Positions 1,401 to 28,968 of a stretch of 64,000 nt of DNA are shown here, piece by piece; position 1 is the stretch's first letter, and each line of letters starts with the position of its first letter. The stretch spans positions 353 to 64,352 of the forward strand of contig SVGW01000003.1 of NCBI GenBank assembly GCA_015056125.1, given 5' to 3'. Below the pieces are notes generated by a model. That model was not told the origin of the DNA. It made no database searches and worked only from the letters and a program-made list of their open reading frames with translations. Made by a program: the position numbers and the translations under genes. This DNA comes from Clostridiales bacterium (GTDB lineage Bacteria > Bacillota > Clostridia > Christensenellales > Aristaeellaceae).

Positions 1401-2876
1401 TCACAAATTTCTTCTGGGCCCAAGCACCAGCACGGCTCCCAAGGCCACCAGCAGGGGAAGGGCCACGATTACAATATAGGCAGGGGCCAGATTGCCCAGG
1501 GTAAGGCTTTCCCGCAGCGCATTTTTAGGCAGAATATCCAGGTTCACCGGGTCTTTCCCCTGGAGAGAACGGATTATTTGCAAAAGGAAGGGTACGGATG
1601 CGGTGTTATTTTGCACCCAGTAATCTTCAAACACCGTCATATTTCCAATGGCAAAAGCCTTGGAAACGGTGCCATCTTCAAACATTTTTTCGGCCCACAG
1701 TGCCAGGGGGAATACCCCTTCCAAATCCCCCTCCTGCTTTTCGGAAAGGCTTACGCCATCCATATAATTGCGGATATAGGCCTGGCCGGTGAGCAGCACG
1801 GGATAGAGGGAAAGATCGGATGAAATTTCATTAGGCACCTGGAACGCCCGGGCGCCGCCAAGGAGCAAAATATCCTGGCCGGATTGAATCAGGGGCAGGG
1901 TGGGGGTGGTTTCCTGCATGTAGGGCATCAGATAGATGGGAGAATCGGAATAATAGCTGGCGCTGTCGCTTTCTTTGGCAATGACCAGGCCTTGATGGCC
2001 TTGGATACCGTACATACGCAGAAGCGCATTATAGTTTTCCAGGGTCAGGGGATCGGAATATTGGGATACAAAGAAGAAATCTCCGCCCGCCTGGGCAAAT
2101 TGGAGCAGAGTATCCAATTCACTGTCGCTCAGATCATACTGGGGAGAAAGCACCAGCAGGGGGCTTTGCGGATTCAGAGCATCGGCGGATTGAAGATTCA
2201 CCCGCTTTACCATATAATTGGCCGATGCCAGCACGCTTTCAGTGTTGGCGGTGTCTGCTTCGTTGAGCTCCCCGTGGCCGGAAAGGATTTGCAGAGTGGG
2301 CAATTCATCCTGGGATACGTAAAGGATGGCCTCCGTGATGCTTTTTTCATAGGTGTAGCCCGCTTCGTCAAAATAGCCTGTTTCGGTGTTATAAGAGTAG
2401 GTGTAGTAATCATCCTCATCCAGCACCCGGGCACGGCCCATTTCAGGGCAGGAAACGATCAGGCAATCAGAGGAAACCGCATTTTCGCCCAACGCATCGG
2501 AAAATTGGGTGAGGAGCACCGGGTTTTTTACGATGCTTTCCTTGGACACGGTAACAAATGAAGAGGAAGCGGCATAGCGATTAAGCAGAGCGGTGAGGGT
2601 AACATTTTCACCGGTATCCTCGGGAATGATGGCATAGATGTGCACATTTTTGTTAAGCTGATTCAGCACTGCGTTGGTGATTTCTCCCTGGGTGGTGGCG
2701 CCGTTAAAGGAGCAATCCAGCCGAAGGGCAAAGCGGCTTTCCAATTGATCGGCCAGAACGGAAAACAGCAGCACGCAAATAACCGTGGCTACGGTGATCA
2801 GCACGGAAAAGCCGCCGCAGCGGAATTTTTTATTGTTTTTAAGGGCATATAAGCCCTGCTTCCAGCGTTTCATCAT
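1401..2876 (-). CDS. GldG-like auxiliary component of an ABC-2 transporter (ABC_transp_aux-like)
   Basis: The ORF is 491 aa. N- and C-terminal TM helices flank a large extracytoplasmic domain, and the gene is tightly packed after the ABC-2 permease and ATPase. Confidence 0.7.
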   Translation of the reverse strand: MMKRWKQGLYALKNNKKFRCGGFSVLITVATVICVLLFSVLADQLESRFALRLDCSFNGATTQGEITNAVLNQLNKNVHIYAIIPEDTGENVTLTALLNRYAASSSFVTVSKESIVKNPVLLTQFSDALGENAVSSDCLIVSCPEMGRARVLDEDDYYTYSYNTETGYFDEAGYTYEKSITEAILYVSQDELPTLQILSGHGELNEADTANTESVLASANYMVKRVNLQSADALNPQSPLLVLSPQYDLSDSELDTLLQFAQAGGDFFFVSQYSDPLTLENYNALLRMYGIQGHQGLVIAKESDSASYYSDSPIYLMPYMQETTPTLPLIQSGQDILLLGGARAFQVPNEISSDLSLYPVLLTGQAYIRNYMDGVSLSEKQEGDLEGVFPLALWAEKMFEDGTVSKAFAIGNMTVFEDYWVQNNTASVPFLLQIIRSLQGKDPVNLDILPKNALRESLTLGNLAPAYIVIVALPLLVALGAVLVLGPRRNL

Positions 2877-2880
2877 GGCG

Positions 2881-3591
2881 TCAGGCCTCGCTCCAGCGCC
2901 GGGCGTCCAGCACCCGCACGCTTAAAAACAGCATAATGAAAATAAACAGCAAATTAAACAGCACATTGGAAAAGCTCAGCTGCCCTTGGGCGAAGGGAAC
3001 GAAGCGCTGATAGAGACTGAAAAATTCCAGGGCGCTGCTGAAAAATTCCACAGACACGGCGGCAGCTACCACGTCGGAGAGCCATACCGAAAGATTCACG
3101 CCAATGCCCAGCACCACGGCGGTCATCTGATTTTGCGCAAAGCAGGAAATGAATAAATCCAGCGCCAGGAAGGAGCAGCCCTGTAAAATCAGCCCCAGAT
3201 ATCCAACCATCGTTTCTTCAAGATACAGCGTGCCAAAGATGGCCACGATGAGCGGATAAATCAGGGAAGCACCCACCGTGCACAAAAGCACCGTGCAGGC
3301 GGCAAAATATTTTCCTGCTATCAGCGCGCTTAAAGAGCAGGGAGAGGAAAAAAGCAATTGATCAGTGCGCTGCCGTTTTTCTCCTGCAATGAGGCGCATG
3401 GTAAGCAAGGGGGAGAGCAGCATCCATAGATAGCTCAGCTGGGCAACCAGCGTGAGCAAATTGCCGGAACGGGTTTCCAGATTGCCGATACCAAAGAAGA
3501 TGCTGGCCAAGGTAAGAAACACGCCCATGAATACATAGGCAGCGGGGGTATAGAAAAAGCTTTGTATTTCCCGCCGATAAATGGCGCGCAT
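2881..3591 (-). CDS. ABC-2 type transporter permease
   Basis: The ORF is 236 aa and polytopic (about 6 TM). It lies 19 nt downstream of the ATPase gene and 4 nt upstream of the GldG-like gene. Confidence 0.75.
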   Translation of the reverse strand: MRAIYRREIQSFFYTPAAYVFMGVFLTLASIFFGIGNLETRSGNLLTLVAQLSYLWMLLSPLLTMRLIAGEKRQRTDQLLFSSPCSLSALIAGKYFAACTVLLCTVGASLIYPLIVAIFGTLYLEETMVGYLGLILQGCSFLALDLFISCFAQNQMTAVVLGIGVNLSVWLSDVVAAAVSVEFFSSALEFFSLYQRFVPFAQGQLSFSNVLFNLLFIFIMLFLSVRVLDARRWSEA

Positions 3592-15061: not shown

Positions 15062-16522
15062 TTATTTGTTTTTACCGCGCTGATGGAATTGATTGAGCGC
15101 CTTCATTTCCTTTTTCAGCGCATCGGAGGGGGGAGAAGCCATGCGCCAGCCCCAATTATGGCCCACGGTGCCAGGGGTGTTCATCCGACCTTCGCTGCCC
15201 AGGCGCAGGAAATCCTGCATGGGGATGATCGCCCTTTCGGCAGGGGACGAAAGCACCTCTTCAATAAAGCACAGGGCGATATCGTCTTCTTCTGTGAATT
15301 CCAGGGTTTCCATGGCAAATTCTTTCACGCGGTCGCTGGCCTTTTCCCACCAGCCAAGCACGGTATCGTTATCATGGGTACCGGTATAGGCAACGTAATT
15401 TTCGGTGTAATTATCGGGGAAGTGGGGGTTGGTTTCATCGCCGTCAAAGCCGAAGGTGAGCACCTTCATGCCGGGATAGCCGCAGAAGCGCAAAAGCTTT
15501 TTCACCCGGTCGTTCACTTCGCCCAGGTCCTCGGCGATAATGCGCACGCCCTTCACTTCCTCCTGCACCACTTTAAAGAAGCTTTCTCCCGGGCTCTTGA
15601 TCCATTCTCCGCCCTTGGCGTTTTTTGCTCCGGCGGGAATGGAATAGTAATTGGCAAAGCCGATAAAGTGGTCCACCCGCAATAGGTCAAAAAGATTGCC
15701 CATGGCATTGAGTCGGTCGATCCACCAGGAATATTTTCTTCTGCTCAGGGTGGCCCAATTATAGAGGGGATTGCCCCAAAGCTGGCCGTCCTCAGAAAAA
15801 TAATCCGGAGGCACGCCGGCCACCTTGATGGGGCGGCAATCCTTGTCAAACTGGAAGATATCCGGATTGGTCCAGGCATCGGCGGAATCCTCGGCCACAT
15901 AGATGGGCATATCCCCAAAAAGCTGAATGCCCTTCTTGTTGGCATATTTTTTCAATGCATTCCATTGCTTGTAGAACAGATGCTGCACGAAAATATGATA
16001 GTGAATTTCTTCATTTAATTTCTCCCGCCATTTTGCCATCACGCCTTTTTTGCGCACACGAATCTCCTGGGGCCATTCCATCCAGGAGGCGCCGCCAAAG
16101 TGACCTTTCAGGGCCATAAATAAGCCGTAATCCTCGGCCCAGGGATGCTGCTTGATAAACTTTTCCATATCTTTTGAATCGGCATTGGCAAATGCCTGGC
16201 GAAGCAGCCCTTCCTTCTGGGCCCGCACCGCATCAAAATCCACGTGATCGCTGTCGGGAAGGGGAAGAAAAGCGCCATCCGGGAGCAGCCCCTCCTTTTC
16301 CAGCAGTTTCATATCAATCAAAAGAGGGTTTCCGGCAAAGGTGGATGCGCTCTGGTAGGGGGATTCGCCATAGCCTGTGGGGCCCACGGGGAGCACCTGC
16401 CAGATGGTCATCCCGGCCTGATGGAGAAAATCCGCAAAGTCGTAAGCCGCCTGGCCCAGGGTGCCGATGCCGCCGGGCTCGGGCAGAGAGGTGATATGCA
16501 GCAGAACGCCGCTTTCGCGCAT
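15062..16522 (-). CDS. malQ: 4-alpha-glucanotransferase (amylomaltase)
   Basis: The start MRESGVLLHITSLPEPGGIGTLG follows AAAGGAGG. The length and motifs fit GH77 (RVDHFIGF, GTHDNDT). Confidence 0.9.
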   Translation of the reverse strand: MRESGVLLHITSLPEPGGIGTLGQAAYDFADFLHQAGMTIWQVLPVGPTGYGESPYQSASTFAGNPLLIDMKLLEKEGLLPDGAFLPLPDSDHVDFDAVRAQKEGLLRQAFANADSKDMEKFIKQHPWAEDYGLFMALKGHFGGASWMEWPQEIRVRKKGVMAKWREKLNEEIHYHIFVQHLFYKQWNALKKYANKKGIQLFGDMPIYVAEDSADAWTNPDIFQFDKDCRPIKVAGVPPDYFSEDGQLWGNPLYNWATLSRRKYSWWIDRLNAMGNLFDLLRVDHFIGFANYYSIPAGAKNAKGGEWIKSPGESFFKVVQEEVKGVRIIAEDLGEVNDRVKKLLRFCGYPGMKVLTFGFDGDETNPHFPDNYTENYVAYTGTHDNDTVLGWWEKASDRVKEFAMETLEFTEEDDIALCFIEEVLSSPAERAIIPMQDFLRLGSEGRMNTPGTVGHNWGWRMASPPSDALKKEMKALNQFHQRGKNK

Positions 16523-16720
16523 AGAAAAGCGCCTCCTTTCAGGAAGTGTCTTTTTAAAATTGCATGGATCAAACCTTAAGAAGCCGGGAGGGCCCGGCAA
16601 CTAATTTGGTCAGATACGTTATTATAACACAAGGGCGTTAAGGGAGCAAGGGCGGGCTGCTTTTTCCCTGTTTTTCTTGTGGTTTTTCCATGAAAAGACG
16701 GAAATTGCGGCATTCAGGGC

Positions 16721-16750
16721 TTGACAGATAAAGCAACAATATCATATAAT
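16721..16750 (+). promoter_or_regulatory. Sigma-A-type promoter of the metNIQ leader
   Basis: TTGACA (16721-16726) is separated by 18 nt from TATAAT (16745-16750). Confidence 0.7.
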
Positions 16751-16795
16751 ATCATCTATCAAGTGGGCGTTATGCTCGGGAAAGGAGGCTCATCC

Positions 16796-16867
16796 ATGCG
16801 CCATTTTGCTATGCGAATGTTCATGCGTGTGAGCTTTCTCCCGCGCTTTTTGTGTTGCGCCGCTTGA
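16796..16867 (+). CDS. Candidate Met-rich leader peptide (23 aa, MRHFAMRMFMRVSFLPRFLCCAA)
   Basis: GGGAAAGGAGG (16778-16788) lies 7 nt before the ATG. Codons 1, 6, 8 and 10 are ATG. The ORF stops 20 nt before a strong terminator and about 110 nt before metN. Confidence 0.45.
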   Translation: MRHFAMRMFMRVSFLPRFLCCAA

Positions 16868-16886
16868 CATTCGCTTTCATCTGTTA

Positions 16887-16923
16887 AGCCCCGCTCGCAA
16901 AATGTGCGAGCCGGGCTTTTTTG
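16887..16923 (+). terminator. Intrinsic terminator/attenuator inside the metNIQ leader
   Basis: The hairpin is AGCCCCGCTCGCA-AAATG-TGCGAGCCGGGCT followed by a T6 run. Confidence 0.8.
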
Positions 16924-16979
16924 TTGGCAGGTCAGAGGGGGCCTTTGGCGCTGCCGGGTGAATCGGAAAGGATGCATGC

Positions 16980-17993
16980 ATGTTGTCACAGGAAACCCAT
17001 CCTCTCATTGAGGTGCGCGATCTGCGCAAGGTATATTCCGTGCCCGGCGGTGAAGTAATCGCTCTGGACGGGATCAATCTCACCATTGAAAAGGGCCAGA
17101 TTTTTGGCATCATCGGCATGTCCGGCGCGGGTAAGTCCACCCTGATCCGCTGCCTGAATAAGCTGGATACTCCCACTGAGGGCCAGGTGCTGATTGAAGG
17201 GAAAAATATTTTGGCCATGGGGAAAAAGGATCTGCTGGCTACCCGCCGGCGGATGGCCATGATCTTTCAGCAGTTTAATCTGCTGATGCAAAAGACGGTG
17301 GCCCGCAATGTGCGCTATCCCCTGGAAATCGCCGGGGTGCCCGCCAAGCAGGCCAATGAGCGGGTGATGGAGCTGCTCAAGATCGTGGGTCTGGAGGAAA
17401 AGGCCAATGCCTATCCCGCCCAGCTGAGTGGCGGCCAAAAGCAGCGCGTGGCGATTGCCCGGGCCCTGGCCAGCGATCCTGAAGTGCTGCTGTGCGATGA
17501 AGCCACCAGTGCTCTGGATCCCATGACCACTCAGAGCATTCTGGCCCTTCTGCAAAAGATCAATCAGGAGCTTGGCATCACCGTGGTGCTGATCACTCAC
17601 GAAATGGCCGTAATCCGCCAGATCTGCAGCAAGGTGGCCATTTTGGATGGGGGCAGGCTGGTGGAGGAGGGCAGCGTGGACGATGTATTCATGCACACCA
17701 AATCTGCCGCAGGCCGCCGCCTCTTCGGTATTCTTCCTGAGCAGGAGGAAATTCCCGCTCAGCCCGCTATCCGCATCGTATTTGACAGCACTTCGGCGGA
17801 TCAGCCCATCATCAGCAAGCTGGTGAAGGAAATTGATATCGAGGTGAATATCCTCTCTGCCGATGTGCGCCAGCTCAATGGCAAATCCTACGGCCAGATG
17901 ATGATTGCAAGGCCCGAAAACCCGGTGGAAGTAAAGCGCGTGATGGATTATCTTCGCGATGCTGGAATGACGGTAGAGGAGGTGCATAGCTGA
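16980..17993 (+). CDS. metN: Methionine ABC transporter ATP-binding protein
   Basis: It carries Walker A GMSGAGKST, LSGGQKQR and a C-terminal NIL-type domain. It is followed by metI and metQ. Confidence 0.9.
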   Translation: MLSQETHPLIEVRDLRKVYSVPGGEVIALDGINLTIEKGQIFGIIGMSGAGKSTLIRCLNKLDTPTEGQVLIEGKNILAMGKKDLLATRRRMAMIFQQFNLLMQKTVARNVRYPLEIAGVPAKQANERVMELLKIVGLEEKANAYPAQLSGGQKQRVAIARALASDPEVLLCDEATSALDPMTTQSILALLQKINQELGITVVLITHEMAVIRQICSKVAILDGGRLVEEGSVDDVFMHTKSAAGRRLFGILPEQEEIPAQPAIRIVFDSTSADQPIISKLVKEIDIEVNILSADVRQLNGKSYGQMMIARPENPVEVKRVMDYLRDAGMTVEEVHS

Positions 17994-18655
17994 TGACCTG
18001 GGAAAAGCTCTTTCCGCTGCTTTGGGAAAGCACCCTGGAAACGCTGTATATGACCTTTGCCAGCAGCCTGATCGCCTATGTGATTGGCCTTCCCTTGGGC
18101 GTGCTGCTGGTGATTACCAGAAAGGGCGCCATCATGGAAGCCCCCACCTTCAATACCATCCTGGGGGTTGTGATCAATTTCCTGCGCTCCATTCCCTTTA
18201 TCATTATGCTGGCGCTGCTGTTCCCGGTTACCCGAGCTGTGGTGGGCACGGCCATCGGTACCGATGCCATTGTGTTCCCGCTGATCATCAGTGCATTCCC
18301 CTATATTGCCCGCATGGTGGAGGGCTCTTTGGATGAAGTGGACCACGGGATCATCGAAGCCGCCCAGTCCATGGGCTCCACCAACTGGCAAATCATTTGC
18401 AAAGTGCTTTTGCCCGAAGCCGTTCCTTCTTTGATCAACGGCGCGGCCATCAGCATCACCACCATCCTGGCCTACACCGCCATGGCAAGTGCAGCCGGCG
18501 GCGGCGGCCTGGGCGCTCTGGCCATCACCAAGGGATTGAACCTGCGCAAGTTTGACGTGATGTATTCCGCAAGCCTGCTGCTGGTGGCCCTGGTGCAAAT
18601 TATCACAGTCTTTGGCGGCCGTATCACCCGCCGCCTGGACCATAAACACCGTTAA
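17993..18655 (+). CDS. metI: Methionine ABC transporter permease
   Basis: The ORF is 220 aa with 5 TM segments and an EAA-like loop (IEAAQSMGST). Its start overlaps the metN stop. Confidence 0.9.
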   Translation: MTWEKLFPLLWESTLETLYMTFASSLIAYVIGLPLGVLLVITRKGAIMEAPTFNTILGVVINFLRSIPFIIMLALLFPVTRAVVGTAIGTDAIVFPLIISAFPYIARMVEGSLDEVDHGIIEAAQSMGSTNWQIICKVLLPEAVPSLINGAAISITTILAYTAMASAAGGGGLGALAITKGLNLRKFDVMYSASLLLVALVQIITVFGGRITRRLDHKHR

Positions 18656-18673: not shown

Positions 18674-19492
18674 ATGAAGAAGATCGTTGCTCTGGTTCTG
18701 GCCCTGGCTCTTTCCCTGTCCCTCACCTCTGCTTTCGCTGCTGAAAAACTCACCATCATCGCCACTGAAAATCCCCATGCCGAAGTGCTGGAACTGGTGA
18801 AGGATGACCTGGCCAAGCTGGGTTATGAGCTGGAACTCACCGTTGTTGCCGACTACTATGTGGAAAATCCTGCCACCGCCGCTGGCGACGTGATGGCCAA
18901 CTTCTTCCAGCATATCCCCTTCTTGGCCACCTACAATGCCGACGCCGCTGAAAAGGATCAGCTGGTGGCCGTGATCGAAACCCACTTTGAGCCCATGGCC
19001 ATCTATGCCGGCACCAAGACCGACCTGGCCAACGTGGCTAAGGGCGATAAGATTGCCGTTCCCAACGACCCCGTGAACGAAAACCGCGCTCTGCTGCTCC
19101 TCCAGGCTGCCGGCCTGATCAAGCTGCCCGAAGGCACCACTCTGGAAAGCCTGTGCACCAAGAATGATATCGTGGAAAACCCCTATGAACTGGAAATCAT
19201 CGAGCTGAACGCTGAACTGATCCCCGGCGCCCGCGCTGACGTGGCCTACGCCGTGATCAACGGCAACAACGCCACCCTGATTGACCTGATCCCCAACGTG
19301 GATGGCCTGTATGTGGAAGCTGCTGACAGCGAAGCTGCCAAGGCTTATGTGAACATCGTAGTGGTTCGCCCTGAAAACGCTGATGCTGAATGGGTAAAGG
19401 CCCTCAAGCAGGTGATGCACACTCAGAAGGTGTACGATCTGATCGTGAACGCTGGCTTTGCCCCCACCTTCGAAGTGCCCGCTGCTGAATAA
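18674..19492 (+). CDS. metQ: MetQ/NlpA-family methionine-binding protein
   Basis: It has a signal peptide, the NlpA-family motif FQHIPFL, and sits in a metNIQ context. Confidence 0.85.
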   Translation: MKKIVALVLALALSLSLTSAFAAEKLTIIATENPHAEVLELVKDDLAKLGYELELTVVADYYVENPATAAGDVMANFFQHIPFLATYNADAAEKDQLVAVIETHFEPMAIYAGTKTDLANVAKGDKIAVPNDPVNENRALLLLQAAGLIKLPEGTTLESLCTKNDIVENPYELEIIELNAELIPGARADVAYAVINGNNATLIDLIPNVDGLYVEAADSEAAKAYVNIVVVRPENADAEWVKALKQVMHTQKVYDLIVNAGFAPTFEVPAAE

Positions 19493-19506
19493 TTGAGGAA
19501 TCAAGA

Positions 19507-19537
19507 AAGTGCCTTTCTTCGGAAGGGCACTTTTTTA
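19507..19537 (+). terminator. Intrinsic terminator after metQ
   Basis: The hairpin is AAGTGCCTTTC-TTCG-GAAGGGCACTT followed by a T-run. Confidence 0.8.
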
Positions 19538-19609
19538 TATTCCAAGCTATTTTCTTTTTTCTCCAGAGCATGTATAATGGGTATATTCTCATCAGGAAGG
19601 AATTTGCGC

Positions 19610-20659
19610 ATGAAACGAATGATGGGCCTTGTGCTGCTGCTTTTGCTGGCAACGGGGAATGCTTTTGGGGAAACCCTCACGCTTTCTTTTATTGGGGATT
19701 GCTCCATTGGGGAGGTGCCTGCATCTGCCGGGAAAGAGGGTAGCTATACCGCTACGGTGGATGAAAAGGGATATGACTGGCCCTTTTCTTTGGTGCGGGA
19801 ATATTTGGATACGGATGATTTTACCTTTGCTAATAATGAAGTGATCTTTACCAGCCGAAATCGCCATGTGGATAAAAAGACCAATTTGAAAGCGCCGGCC
19901 CAATATGCCCAGGTCTATCTCCATTCCGGGGTGGATGCGGTGAACACCGCCAACAACCACGCCATGGATTTTTACCAGGAGGGCTATGAGGATACCCTGG
20001 CGGCTTTGGATAGCTATGAAATTTCCCATTTTGGCACCCTTTATCCCGGCACTCAAAGAGCTCAGGATCGATTGGGTGTTTACGAAGTGAAAGGAATCAA
20101 AATCGGTGCGGTGGGCTTTTCCTATCCTCAAGACAGCGATGTGAAAAAGATTTCGGCCCGTATTGAACAATTGCACCAGGAAGGGTGCGATTTGGTGGTC
20201 GTGAGCCTTCATTGGGGAAGAGAAGTGCAGGATACGCCCCAAAGCTGGCAATTTTCCTATGCCCGAAAGCTGATTGATGCCGGAGCGGATGTGATCTGGG
20301 GGCATCATCCCCATATTCTGCAGCAGGTGCAGTTTTATAACGGTAAGCCCATTTTCTACTCCACCGGAAATTTCACCTTTGGCTCTATGAGCGCTGTGGA
20401 TCCGGATACGGGCATTTTTCAGCTGCAGTATGAAATCGAGGAAGAGGGAATTGCGCTTAAAAACTTCACTGTGATCCCTTGCCGTACCCAGGGCAAAGGG
20501 GATTACAGGCCCTATCCGCTTACCGATCCGGAAGAAAAGAAAACCATGCTGAAAAAGCTGATTTATAAAAAGACGGTGAAAAACATGCAAAATTTGCCCG
20601 CCTCCTTTGCGGAAACGGGCAGCGTGGATTTAATGGACGGGCTTTTGCCGGAGGAGTGA
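19610..20659 (+). CDS. CapA-family (PGA_cap metallophosphatase-like) secreted protein
   Basis: The start MKRMMGLVLLLLLATGNAFG (signal peptide) follows AGGAAGGA. The motifs SFIGD, NNHAMD and SLHWGRE are typical of CapA. Confidence 0.8.
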   Translation: MKRMMGLVLLLLLATGNAFGETLTLSFIGDCSIGEVPASAGKEGSYTATVDEKGYDWPFSLVREYLDTDDFTFANNEVIFTSRNRHVDKKTNLKAPAQYAQVYLHSGVDAVNTANNHAMDFYQEGYEDTLAALDSYEISHFGTLYPGTQRAQDRLGVYEVKGIKIGAVGFSYPQDSDVKKISARIEQLHQEGCDLVVVSLHWGREVQDTPQSWQFSYARKLIDAGADVIWGHHPHILQQVQFYNGKPIFYSTGNFTFGSMSAVDPDTGIFQLQYEIEEEGIALKNFTVIPCRTQGKGDYRPYPLTDPEEKKTMLKKLIYKKTVKNMQNLPASFAETGSVDLMDGLLPEE

Positions 20660-28748: not shown

Positions 28749-28968
28749 TGTTGGTTAGCGTCGGCTGACCTGGTCTTTGACCCCACACTCGCCGGCTGGA
28801 ACTTTGCTCTGCGCATTTGCGCCCTCACGCCATCCTCTCGCGCTTTTTGCGCGGCCGGGCTTACATCTAGACCGCACCATGCTCACCGATACTTTGATCG
28901 GCTTACGTGGACCGCTTTGCCTGCGACTGGCATCGGCTTGCAACCACAGACCCGATTTGCCAACCGCC
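28749..28968 (-). ncRNA. Unclassified structured RNA: long 5' leader of the zinc-ribbon gene or a co-transcribed ncRNA (about 220 nt)
   Basis: It lies directly downstream of a TTGCGT-17-TATAAT promoter. The 5' and 3' ends pair (GUUGG with CCAAC), and there are at least six local hairpins with A-rich loops. It has no credible ORF and no terminator before the RBS at about 28735. Confidence 0.45.

Follow-up and report, generated by a model that had tools for sequence, protein, structure and literature searches.

A putative ribosome-mediated methionine attenuator upstream of metNIQ in uncultured Clostridia

Described attenuators and the metNIQ leader

In Firmicutes, genes for methionine uptake and synthesis are usually described as being under the control of S-box RNAs, T-box RNAs or protein regulators. 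Here, we analyzed the leader of the methionine importer operon metNIQ in a 64,000-nucleotide stretch of DNA from a Clostridiales bacterium (assembly GCA_015056125.1, contig SVGW01000003.1); this whole stretch is referred to as the window and all coordinates are those of the window. Between the promoter and metN lies a short open reading frame (ORF) with clustered Met codons, followed by an intrinsic terminator. A first reading of this DNA, made from its letters alone (hereafter the sequence-only reading), had proposed an attenuator of the trp/his type keyed to these Met codons. This proposal is supported by the absence of matches to Rfam, by conservation of the leader and by folds computed for different ribosome states. 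We consider it probable that the leader is a ribosome-mediated leader-peptide transcription attenuator, which senses charged elongator Met-tRNA and controls the metNIQ importer. We infer that the leader ORF is translated, that ribosomes stall in it and that the outcome responds to methionine. Induction of a Met importer by low Met-tRNA is a physiologically sensible logic.

The leader appears to fit a known class, the leader-peptide transcription attenuators, and its predicted architecture is that of the classical examples in E. coli and Salmonella (trpL, hisL, leuL, thrL, pheL and ilvL). As in these systems, a short ORF carries a cluster of cognate codons with the same inferred logic, the predicted 1:2, 2:3 and 3:4 pairings are mutually exclusive, the stop codon is placed such that a terminating ribosome would mask region 2, and an intrinsic terminator precedes the structural genes. 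A further likeness is that the predicted antiterminator is weaker than the terminator, which implies kinetic control; the antiterminator/terminator energy ratio is similar in the trp attenuator. However, there are several differences. The sensed amino acid is Met, which is also the initiator amino acid, and Cys codons are found alongside the Met codons. The target is an importer rather than a biosynthetic operon, and the hosts are Clostridia, where T-box and S-box RNAs normally do this job. The regulatory codons are located at the apex of a hairpin that sequesters the Shine-Dalgarno sequence (SD) of the leader ORF, and a ribosome stalled there leaves the basal region 1 uncovered. In addition, the leader has no sequence or covariance-model similarity to any leader family in Rfam. 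Thus, for an attenuator of this class, the Met specificity is unusual and both the importer target and the host range would be unexpected.

The only published precedent for a methionine attenuator that we found is metL of Streptomyces lividans TK24, a leader peptide upstream of metNIQ which was called a methionine-dependent attenuator on the basis of RNA-seq (Droste et al., Front Microbiol 2021, PMC8079986). Its authors reported no typical Rho-independent terminator and an unclear mode of termination, and the description is based on a single genome and contains no comparative or structural model (PMC8079986). The target operon is the same as in the window, and the published metL peptide (MSTTSDRTPATEATTTPGARCMCRRMCAF), by which alone we liken the two leaders, is Met/Cys-rich near its 3' end. 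However, metL is an actinobacterial, leaderless ORF, whereas the clostridial leader ORF has a 5' untranslated region (UTR) and an SD. Another comparison is offered by polycysteine leaderless ORFs in mycobacteria, which have been shown experimentally to attenuate translation (Canestrari et al., 10.1101/834739). The likeness is that pausing at codons for a sulfur amino acid relieves an attenuating fold. These ORFs differ in that they are leaderless, contain consecutive Cys runs (at least three) and lead to exposure of a downstream ribosome-binding site, whereas the leader analyzed here has an intrinsic terminator and its Cys codons are scattered or, in some relatives, absent; the window leader lies outside the definition of the mycobacterial class. 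S-box (S-adenosylmethionine (SAM)-I) and Met T-box leaders occupy the same position upstream of metN and have the same terminator/antiterminator output, but in these the RNA itself senses SAM or uncharged tRNA, and translation plays no part.

Leader peptides for amino acids are regarded as rare in bacteria other than Proteobacteria and Actinobacteria and are almost unknown in Firmicutes, where bacilli have been reported to carry His leader peptides ahead of paralogues of hisS (Naville & Gautheret 2010, PMC2965389). The latter are also rare Firmicutes leader-peptide attenuators that replace a T-box, but they involve a different amino acid, target gene and lineage. In Actinobacteria, no regulation of methionine genes by RNA was found by Seliverstov et al. 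(PMC1262725), who did detect Cys-rich leaders. Our full-text literature search, with most subscription journals outside its coverage, detected no Met leader-peptide attenuator in Firmicutes.

The leader ORF and its conservation

The window leader starts with a sigma-70 promoter on the forward strand (16721-16750), in which the -35 box TTGACA (16721-16726) and the -10 box TATAAT (16745-16750) match the consensus in 12 of 12 positions and are separated by an 18-nt spacer. The transcript would start at about 16757, some 7 nt past the -10 box, and would have a 5' UTR of about 40 nt containing the SD (GGGAAAGGAGG, 16778-16788), which is located 7 nt upstream of the ATG at 16796. The leader ORF (16796-16867, forward strand) has 23 codons and a TGA stop (16865-16867), and encodes the peptide MRHFAMRMFMRVSFLPRFLCCAA. 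Met is found at codons 1, 6, 8 and 10, and the cluster of codons 6, 8 and 10 (16811-16825) is the proposed stall site. The ORF is followed by the intrinsic terminator (16886-16923), which is composed of a stem (16886-16899 with 16905-16918; -22.9 kcal/mol) and a U tract and is located about 56 nt ahead of the metN start. Promoter, SD, ORF, Met codons and terminator were all found where the sequence-only reading had placed them; the two Cys codons, which it had assigned to positions 19-20, are in fact codons 20-21. They are the only Cys codons of this ORF and lie in a segment of its 3' end designated region 2 (see below).

Three ATG codons within five codons are found in 20 of 127,966 six-frame five-codon windows in the 64 kb, which gives about 3e-3 for an ORF of this length, close to the earlier estimate of about 1e-3. 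By itself, the Met cluster is therefore modestly unusual, and the strong evidence comes from comparison between genomes.

With MetN as the query, 185,579 species genomes yielded about 58 loci, in uncultured Clostridia and 'Candidatus Limiplasma', whose MetN proteins are 69-87% identical to that of the window. An exact look-up of the MetN protein of the window gave no match; the nearest relatives are metagenome-assembled genomes of uncultured Clostridia (87% MetN identity) and 'Candidatus Limiplasma'. About 50 of these loci have a complete upstream region, and nearly all of them contain a promoter, an SD, a Met-rich ORF of 17-26 codons and a terminator. We aligned 47 leaders (alignment A1). All 47 have TTGACA and a (TG)nTAnnAT -10 box at the same distance, and all have an invariant AGG core of the SD with the start codon at fixed spacing. 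A core set of 39 genomes has the consensus peptide (V/M)TNLCAMRMNMMCACDFSPCYLCCVA, in which Met codons 7, 11 and 12 are present in every genome and codon 9 in 34. The window belongs to a sister subgroup of this core, together with loci L001-L006 and L008 (MKKTTMRMFMCAG...), which keeps the pattern M-R-M-F/S-M; the string MRMFM is retained in the closest relatives of the window (L002-L006 and L008). Of three indel events within the ORF, two are 3 nt long. It should be noted that the start codon is GTG in 35 of the 39 core-family ORFs (A1 column 53) and ATG in the window and its closest relatives.

Metagenomes were scanned with a conserved 18-mer from the 3' end of the ORF. This pattern gave 120 hits, about 85 of them due to chance, which were filtered by context. 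The remaining copies, about 35 and judged genuine, all have the same ORF, and MetN is encoded in every one with enough downstream DNA. The scan detected no match to region 2 upstream of any gene other than metN and thus gives no indication that this sequence family controls further genes; within the window, no second copy of region 2 was found with up to 3 mismatches allowed. The sequence-only reading had named such a comparison as a check. In about 50 relatives and in some 35 contigs from metagenomes, the short ORF has been retained together with its Met codons and the terminator.

In other Clostridia, the nucleotide sequence upstream of metN or metQ is unrelated, yet it still contains a Met/Cys-rich ORF followed by a terminator. 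The leader peptides of loci L043, L048 and L054/L055 are MRNRLAAMMMRMSMCEMYMLMCA, MTAKTAMMMRMGMCMSMCSAFLCA and MSRTTMMMEMGMMGMCMCAASYID, respectively; these are even richer in Met than the window family, with 8-10 Met codons (including the start) per 21-24 codons. Leaders in Subdoligranulum and Gemmiger, including the cultured Subdoligranulum sp. DSM 109015, are located upstream of metQ-metN-metI, encode MYRRDAMMMCMYSMPRQPVLASLCAFSGV and MTCIERRDGMMMCMCSWLRQPAHVSPCLHFAA, and have 5-6 Met codons per 29-32 codons. In about 90 loci altogether, the ORF is always found between the promoter and the terminator upstream of methionine transporter genes. We regard the recurrence of in-frame AUG clusters in unrelated sequences at the same operon position as the strongest argument that the codons, and not an RNA aptamer, are under selection.

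The Met-codon leader is evidently widespread in gut Clostridia and has remained unannotated because such leaders have no Rfam model and their ORFs are too short for gene calling. Analogous elements occur in abundant genera of the human gut, Gemmiger and Subdoligranulum, including a cultured strain. Such leaders provide an accessible model for the study of attenuation by an amino acid that the cell also requires to initiate translation, and they suggest that import of sulfur amino acids in gut Clostridia may be tied to tRNA charging rather than to SAM.

Several further features were observed in these loci. Met-Cys strings (MCMSMC, MCMC, MMMCMC, CMCRRMC), together with L/M-C-A near the stop, recur in L043, L048, L052, L054, L055, the Subdoligranulum/Gemmiger loci L202-L206 and S. 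lividans metL (PMC8079986). These strings may be due to sensing of Cys, to the self-complementarity of AUGUGC repeats or to a remote shared origin. In L202-L206, a second conserved short ORF with a strong SD, MKT(G/S)P.C.QPG.RM..., is present in the interval between the terminator and metQ (~1340-1500), and a divergent gene for an Rrf2-family regulator is located upstream of the Subdoligranulum/Gemmiger leader. The metN leader ORF of L045 (~2870-3000; MKRCGKRMSGWMRHAPVCESRAG) has only two internal Met codons and is followed by a terminator; it may be a degenerate representative of these leaders or an element of another kind. Two Oscillospiraceae metN loci, L053 and L062, have in common a conserved leader of about 250 nt (2760-3000 in each), which lacks a Met-rich ORF and matches nothing in Rfam. 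This leader may be another, previously undescribed element that regulates the same operon, but its conservation says little, as the two genomes are closely related.

RNA architecture and ribosome-state folds

The region 16759-16867 of the window leader folds into one long imperfect hairpin (the 1:2 pairing; -46.6 kcal/mol), with the Met codons at its apex. This hairpin was the minimum free energy (MFE) structure in each of the 12 leaders folded, and 78% of its alignment cells are paired, compared with 31-54% in shifted registers. For the whole window leader, the fold has z = -3.3. The base of the hairpin is formed by region 1 (16759-16769, forward strand), the 5' strand of a basal helix, which in the MFE structure pairs with 16856-16867 including the stop codon. 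The family keeps an AUCAAG/CUUGAU pairing between the 5' UTR and the stop-codon region, and at A1 columns 16 and 133 (CG in 33 leaders, UA in 6, UG in 3) the 5' UTR base tracks the TGA/TAA choice, being opposite the middle base of the stop codon. Further up, an anti-SD strand inside the ORF (16829-16843, forward strand) pairs with the SD region (16777-16793) in the MFE structure. A pairing of the SD with the ORF had been suggested by the sequence-only reading; it is present in the MFE structure, with its limits corrected to 16784-16793 and 16829-16838. Pairing of the GGAGUCGC/GCGAUUUC type is retained in the family as helix 3, in which 83.8% of cells are paired. Thus, the hairpin sequesters the leader ORF's own SD, as well as its start codon. 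Covariation tests of the long hairpin were weak or uninformative.

Region 2 (16845-16869, forward strand) comprises the last part of the ORF, with the stop codon. In the hairpin it is paired with the 5' UTR, and in the predicted antiterminator it forms the 5' strand. The 3' strand is region 3 (16882-16905, forward strand), which overlaps the 5' arm and the loop of the terminator. In the window, this antiterminator has 20 bp and an energy of -19.6 kcal/mol. A near-invariant sequence at the 3' end of the ORF, UUUGUGYUGCGYCGCUU(G/A)A, is complementary to the terminator 5' arm and loop AAGCCCGCUUCGCAAA, and TTTGTGYTGCGYCGCTTRA within region 2 is near-invariant across the 47 genomes, although their MetN proteins share only 69-87% identity with that of the window. 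The antiterminator register provides 10-14 pairs in 47 of 47 leaders, with a mean energy of -17.3 kcal/mol versus -22.2 kcal/mol for the terminator, and 90% of its cells are paired, versus 30-63% in slid registers. The terminator itself has 92.9% of cells paired in the family, and its covariation is above that of all 500 shuffles. When the full alignment was folded with RNAalifold, the result was limited to the terminator and one small hairpin within the ORF; the antiterminator emerged only on folding the columns 3' of the stall site without the 3' arm of the terminator. Our confidence in the exact pairing of this putative antiterminator is lower than that in the general mechanism.

The sequence-only reading had noted a different competing pairing, 16828-16834 with 16893-16899. 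This is not the conserved antiterminator, whose place is taken by 16845-16869 with 16882-16905. None of the window folds with a stalled ribosome contained it, and it would be covered by a ribosome stalled at the Met codons.

Several relatives (L002-L005 and L008) carry a 1-nt insertion (A1 column 115), which creates a TGA and shortens the ORF to 17 codons. The sequence TTTGTGCTGCGCCGCTTGA downstream of this early TGA is unchanged in these loci. Since region 2 is kept where it is untranslated, selection on it acts at the level of RNA and not of the peptide. This also explains the two Cys codons of the window ORF as part of UUGUGUUGCG; in the window, codons 20-21 are probably not regulatory.

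These pairings suggest the following mechanism. With no ribosome on the leader, the long hairpin 16759-16867, in which the second half of the ORF is paired with the 5' UTR, the SD and the start codon, would leave the terminator free to form, and transcription would stop. When Met-tRNA is plentiful, a ribosome would reach the stop codon (16865-16867) and cover region 2, and the terminator would again form. When Met-tRNA is scarce, stalling at codons 6-10 would open the hairpin and free region 2. The latter could then pair with 16882-16905 before the 3' arm of the terminator is made, allowing read-through into metNIQ.

We modeled ribosome footprints as unpaired stretches from -15 to +12 relative to the A site. 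In the window, the fold with no ribosome consisted of the long hairpin and the terminator, and with a ribosome at the stop codon region 2 was covered and the terminator formed. When the A site was placed on Met codon 6, 8 or 10 and the transcript ended in the terminator loop, the antiterminator was present in the MFE structure. Thus, folding with masked footprints, which the sequence-only reading had named as a check, gave the expected antiterminator/terminator switch. Across the family, the antiterminator was part of the MFE structure in 27 of 47 leaders with one stalled ribosome and in 41 of 47 when a second ribosome was queued behind it; the antiterminator state exceeded the MFE by a mean of about 2 kcal/mol in the former case and about 1 kcal/mol in the latter.

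Several observations weigh against this model. The window ORF has just three internal Met codons. The antiterminator has no covariation support in A1, which is explained by the conservation of both of its strands, and its energy is clearly distinct from that of shuffled sequences in the window only (z = -4.0; relatives, +0.4 to -2.5). As the region 2 shuffle score is strong only in the window, we rely on the conserved register and not on energy. Full-length RNA at equilibrium always prefers the terminator, and the switch must therefore be kinetic, as is accepted for the trp attenuator. In 12 of the 47 folds with a single ribosome, the basal helix wins. A ribosome stalled at the apex leaves this helix (5' UTR with region 2) uncovered, so it could re-form and favor termination. 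Finally, Met starvation should also lower fMet-tRNA, which would reduce initiation on the leader and thereby favor termination.

Known RNA families, alternative explanations and neighboring features

We searched positions 16000-17500 against all 4,227 Rfam families with cmscan at E ≤ 10, and the whole window at gathering score. At E ≤ 10, 16000-17500 gave noise only, with no SAM, S-adenosylhomocysteine (SAH), T-box or other credible match, and the Rfam leader-peptide families (Trp, His, Leu, Thr, Phe and similar) were absent from these matches. The leader is recognized neither by the models for SAM-I/S-box (RF00162) and the other SAM/SAH classes nor by that for T-box (RF00230). In parallel, both types of element were detected in controls: directly ahead of metN, Enterococcus faecalis has a T-box that scored 100.9 bits, and in Pontibacillus the sequence upstream of metN contains a SAM-I riboswitch with a score of 77.9 bits. 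The earlier statement that S-box and T-box hallmarks are lacking is therefore borne out. No Rfam family was found in 17 related loci, the S-box and T-box models matched no Met-ORF locus, and nothing was found at the Subdoligranulum/Gemmiger met loci. With negative results at the leader, in the window and at related loci, and with positive controls, we exclude a known RNA family as the identity of the leader.

It is possible, and we put it forward only tentatively, that the leader senses sulfur amino acids in general, with both Met and Cys codons being regulatory and with Cys stalls just past the Met cluster also freeing region 2. Charging of both Met-tRNA and Cys-tRNA would then influence the transporter. 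In the 39 core genomes, Cys codons are found at positions 5, 13, 15, 20, 23 and 24; synonymous TGC/TGT changes keep Cys at codons 13, 15 and 20, and Cys takes the place of Met codon 9 in L056 and L057. Region 2 would be freed by a stall at Cys13 or Cys15 but masked by one at Cys23 or Cys24. Strings in which Met and Cys alternate (MCMSMC, MCMC, MMMCMC) in sequence-unrelated leaders point in the same direction, as do the end of the S. lividans metL peptide, ...CMCRRMCAF (PMC8079986), and the known Cys-codon attenuators in mycobacteria (10.1101/834739). However, the only Cys codons of the window ORF, 20-21, lie in region 2, and a ribosome stalled on them would mask the antiterminator; L002, L003 and L008 have no in-frame Cys codon at all. 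In addition, UGC and UGU may be kept for base pairing, as GUGCGCGUGCG forms helices and AUGUGC repeats are self-complementary. Sensing of both Met and Cys is thus plausible but not required, and it would extend the Met-tRNA attenuator rather than exclude it.

A broader version of this idea, which is rather doubtful at present, is that the Met/Cys leaders of 'Limiplasma'-like and other uncultured Clostridia, of Subdoligranulum/Gemmiger and of Streptomyces (metL) form one ancient unannotated class, in which both sulfur amino acids are read on a single ribosome track, such that stalls at Met and at Met-adjacent Cys codons induce and stalls at distal Cys codons do not. If true, such a class would replace the S-box/T-box paradigm in large parts of gut Clostridia, and it would show that the initiator amino acid is usable as an attenuation signal.

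It is very unlikely that the leader is a novel structured RNA that binds a metabolite or a protein, e.g., a new SAM or Met riboswitch, with the short ORF being incidental or a folding aid. The long conserved hairpin and its highly conserved nucleotides, the z-score of the whole-leader fold (-3.3) and the conservation of region 2 in the loci where it is untranslated are all consistent with such an RNA. However, the most conserved unpaired elements are the SD, the start codon at fixed spacing and the in-frame AUG codons; the leader has no multi-helix junction, no conserved internal-loop pocket and no Rfam match; and the sequence-unrelated leaders have in common only the Met/Cys-rich ORF and the terminator, which an aptamer cannot explain.

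Small-molecule-sensing arrest peptides exist, and the N-terminal half of the leader peptide, MTNLCAMRMNMMCAC, is well conserved in the core family. Nevertheless, we find it highly improbable that the leader peptide arrests ribosomes in the manner of TnaC or ErmCL in response to free methionine, SAM or general translation stress. Between leader families, only the Met/Cys composition and not the peptide sequence is conserved, the window peptide is unlike the core at most non-Met positions, and the logic of importer induction fits starvation sensing. Met/Cys-rich motifs can bind soft metals, and three ATG codons in five occur some 14 times by chance in the 64 kb, but a functional Met/Cys-rich micropeptide (e.g., metal-binding) co-transcribed with metNIQ, or a chance ORF before a leaky terminator, is hardly credible. 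The peptide is truncated to 17 residues in L002-L005 and L008 and has no Cys in L002, L003 and L008, and conservation tracks RNA pairing and not the peptide. In all of about 90 loci, the ORF keeps its place between promoter and terminator ahead of the genes for met transporters. In 370 kb of flanking DNA, most of the non-leader short ORFs that follow an SD and have 4 or more internal Met codons are on the strand opposite the oriented metN operon.

The genes that the proposed Met-tRNA attenuator would control are metN (16980-17993; NCBIfam E = 2e-105), metI (17993-18655; E = 3.5e-62) and metQ (18674-19492; E = 3.7e-47), all on the forward strand. Upstream, a stretch of 457 nt separates metN from the divergent malQ (15062-16522, reverse strand). 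A gene for a CapA-like protein (PGA_cap, Pfam 2.2e-61; 19493-20659, forward strand) begins at the nucleotide that follows the metQ stop codon. Co-transcription with metNIQ is possible and would place this gene under the same attenuator. The only Rfam family detected in the whole window is a raiA RNA (RF03072) on the reverse strand at 28758-28960, which scored 176 bits, well over the gathering score.

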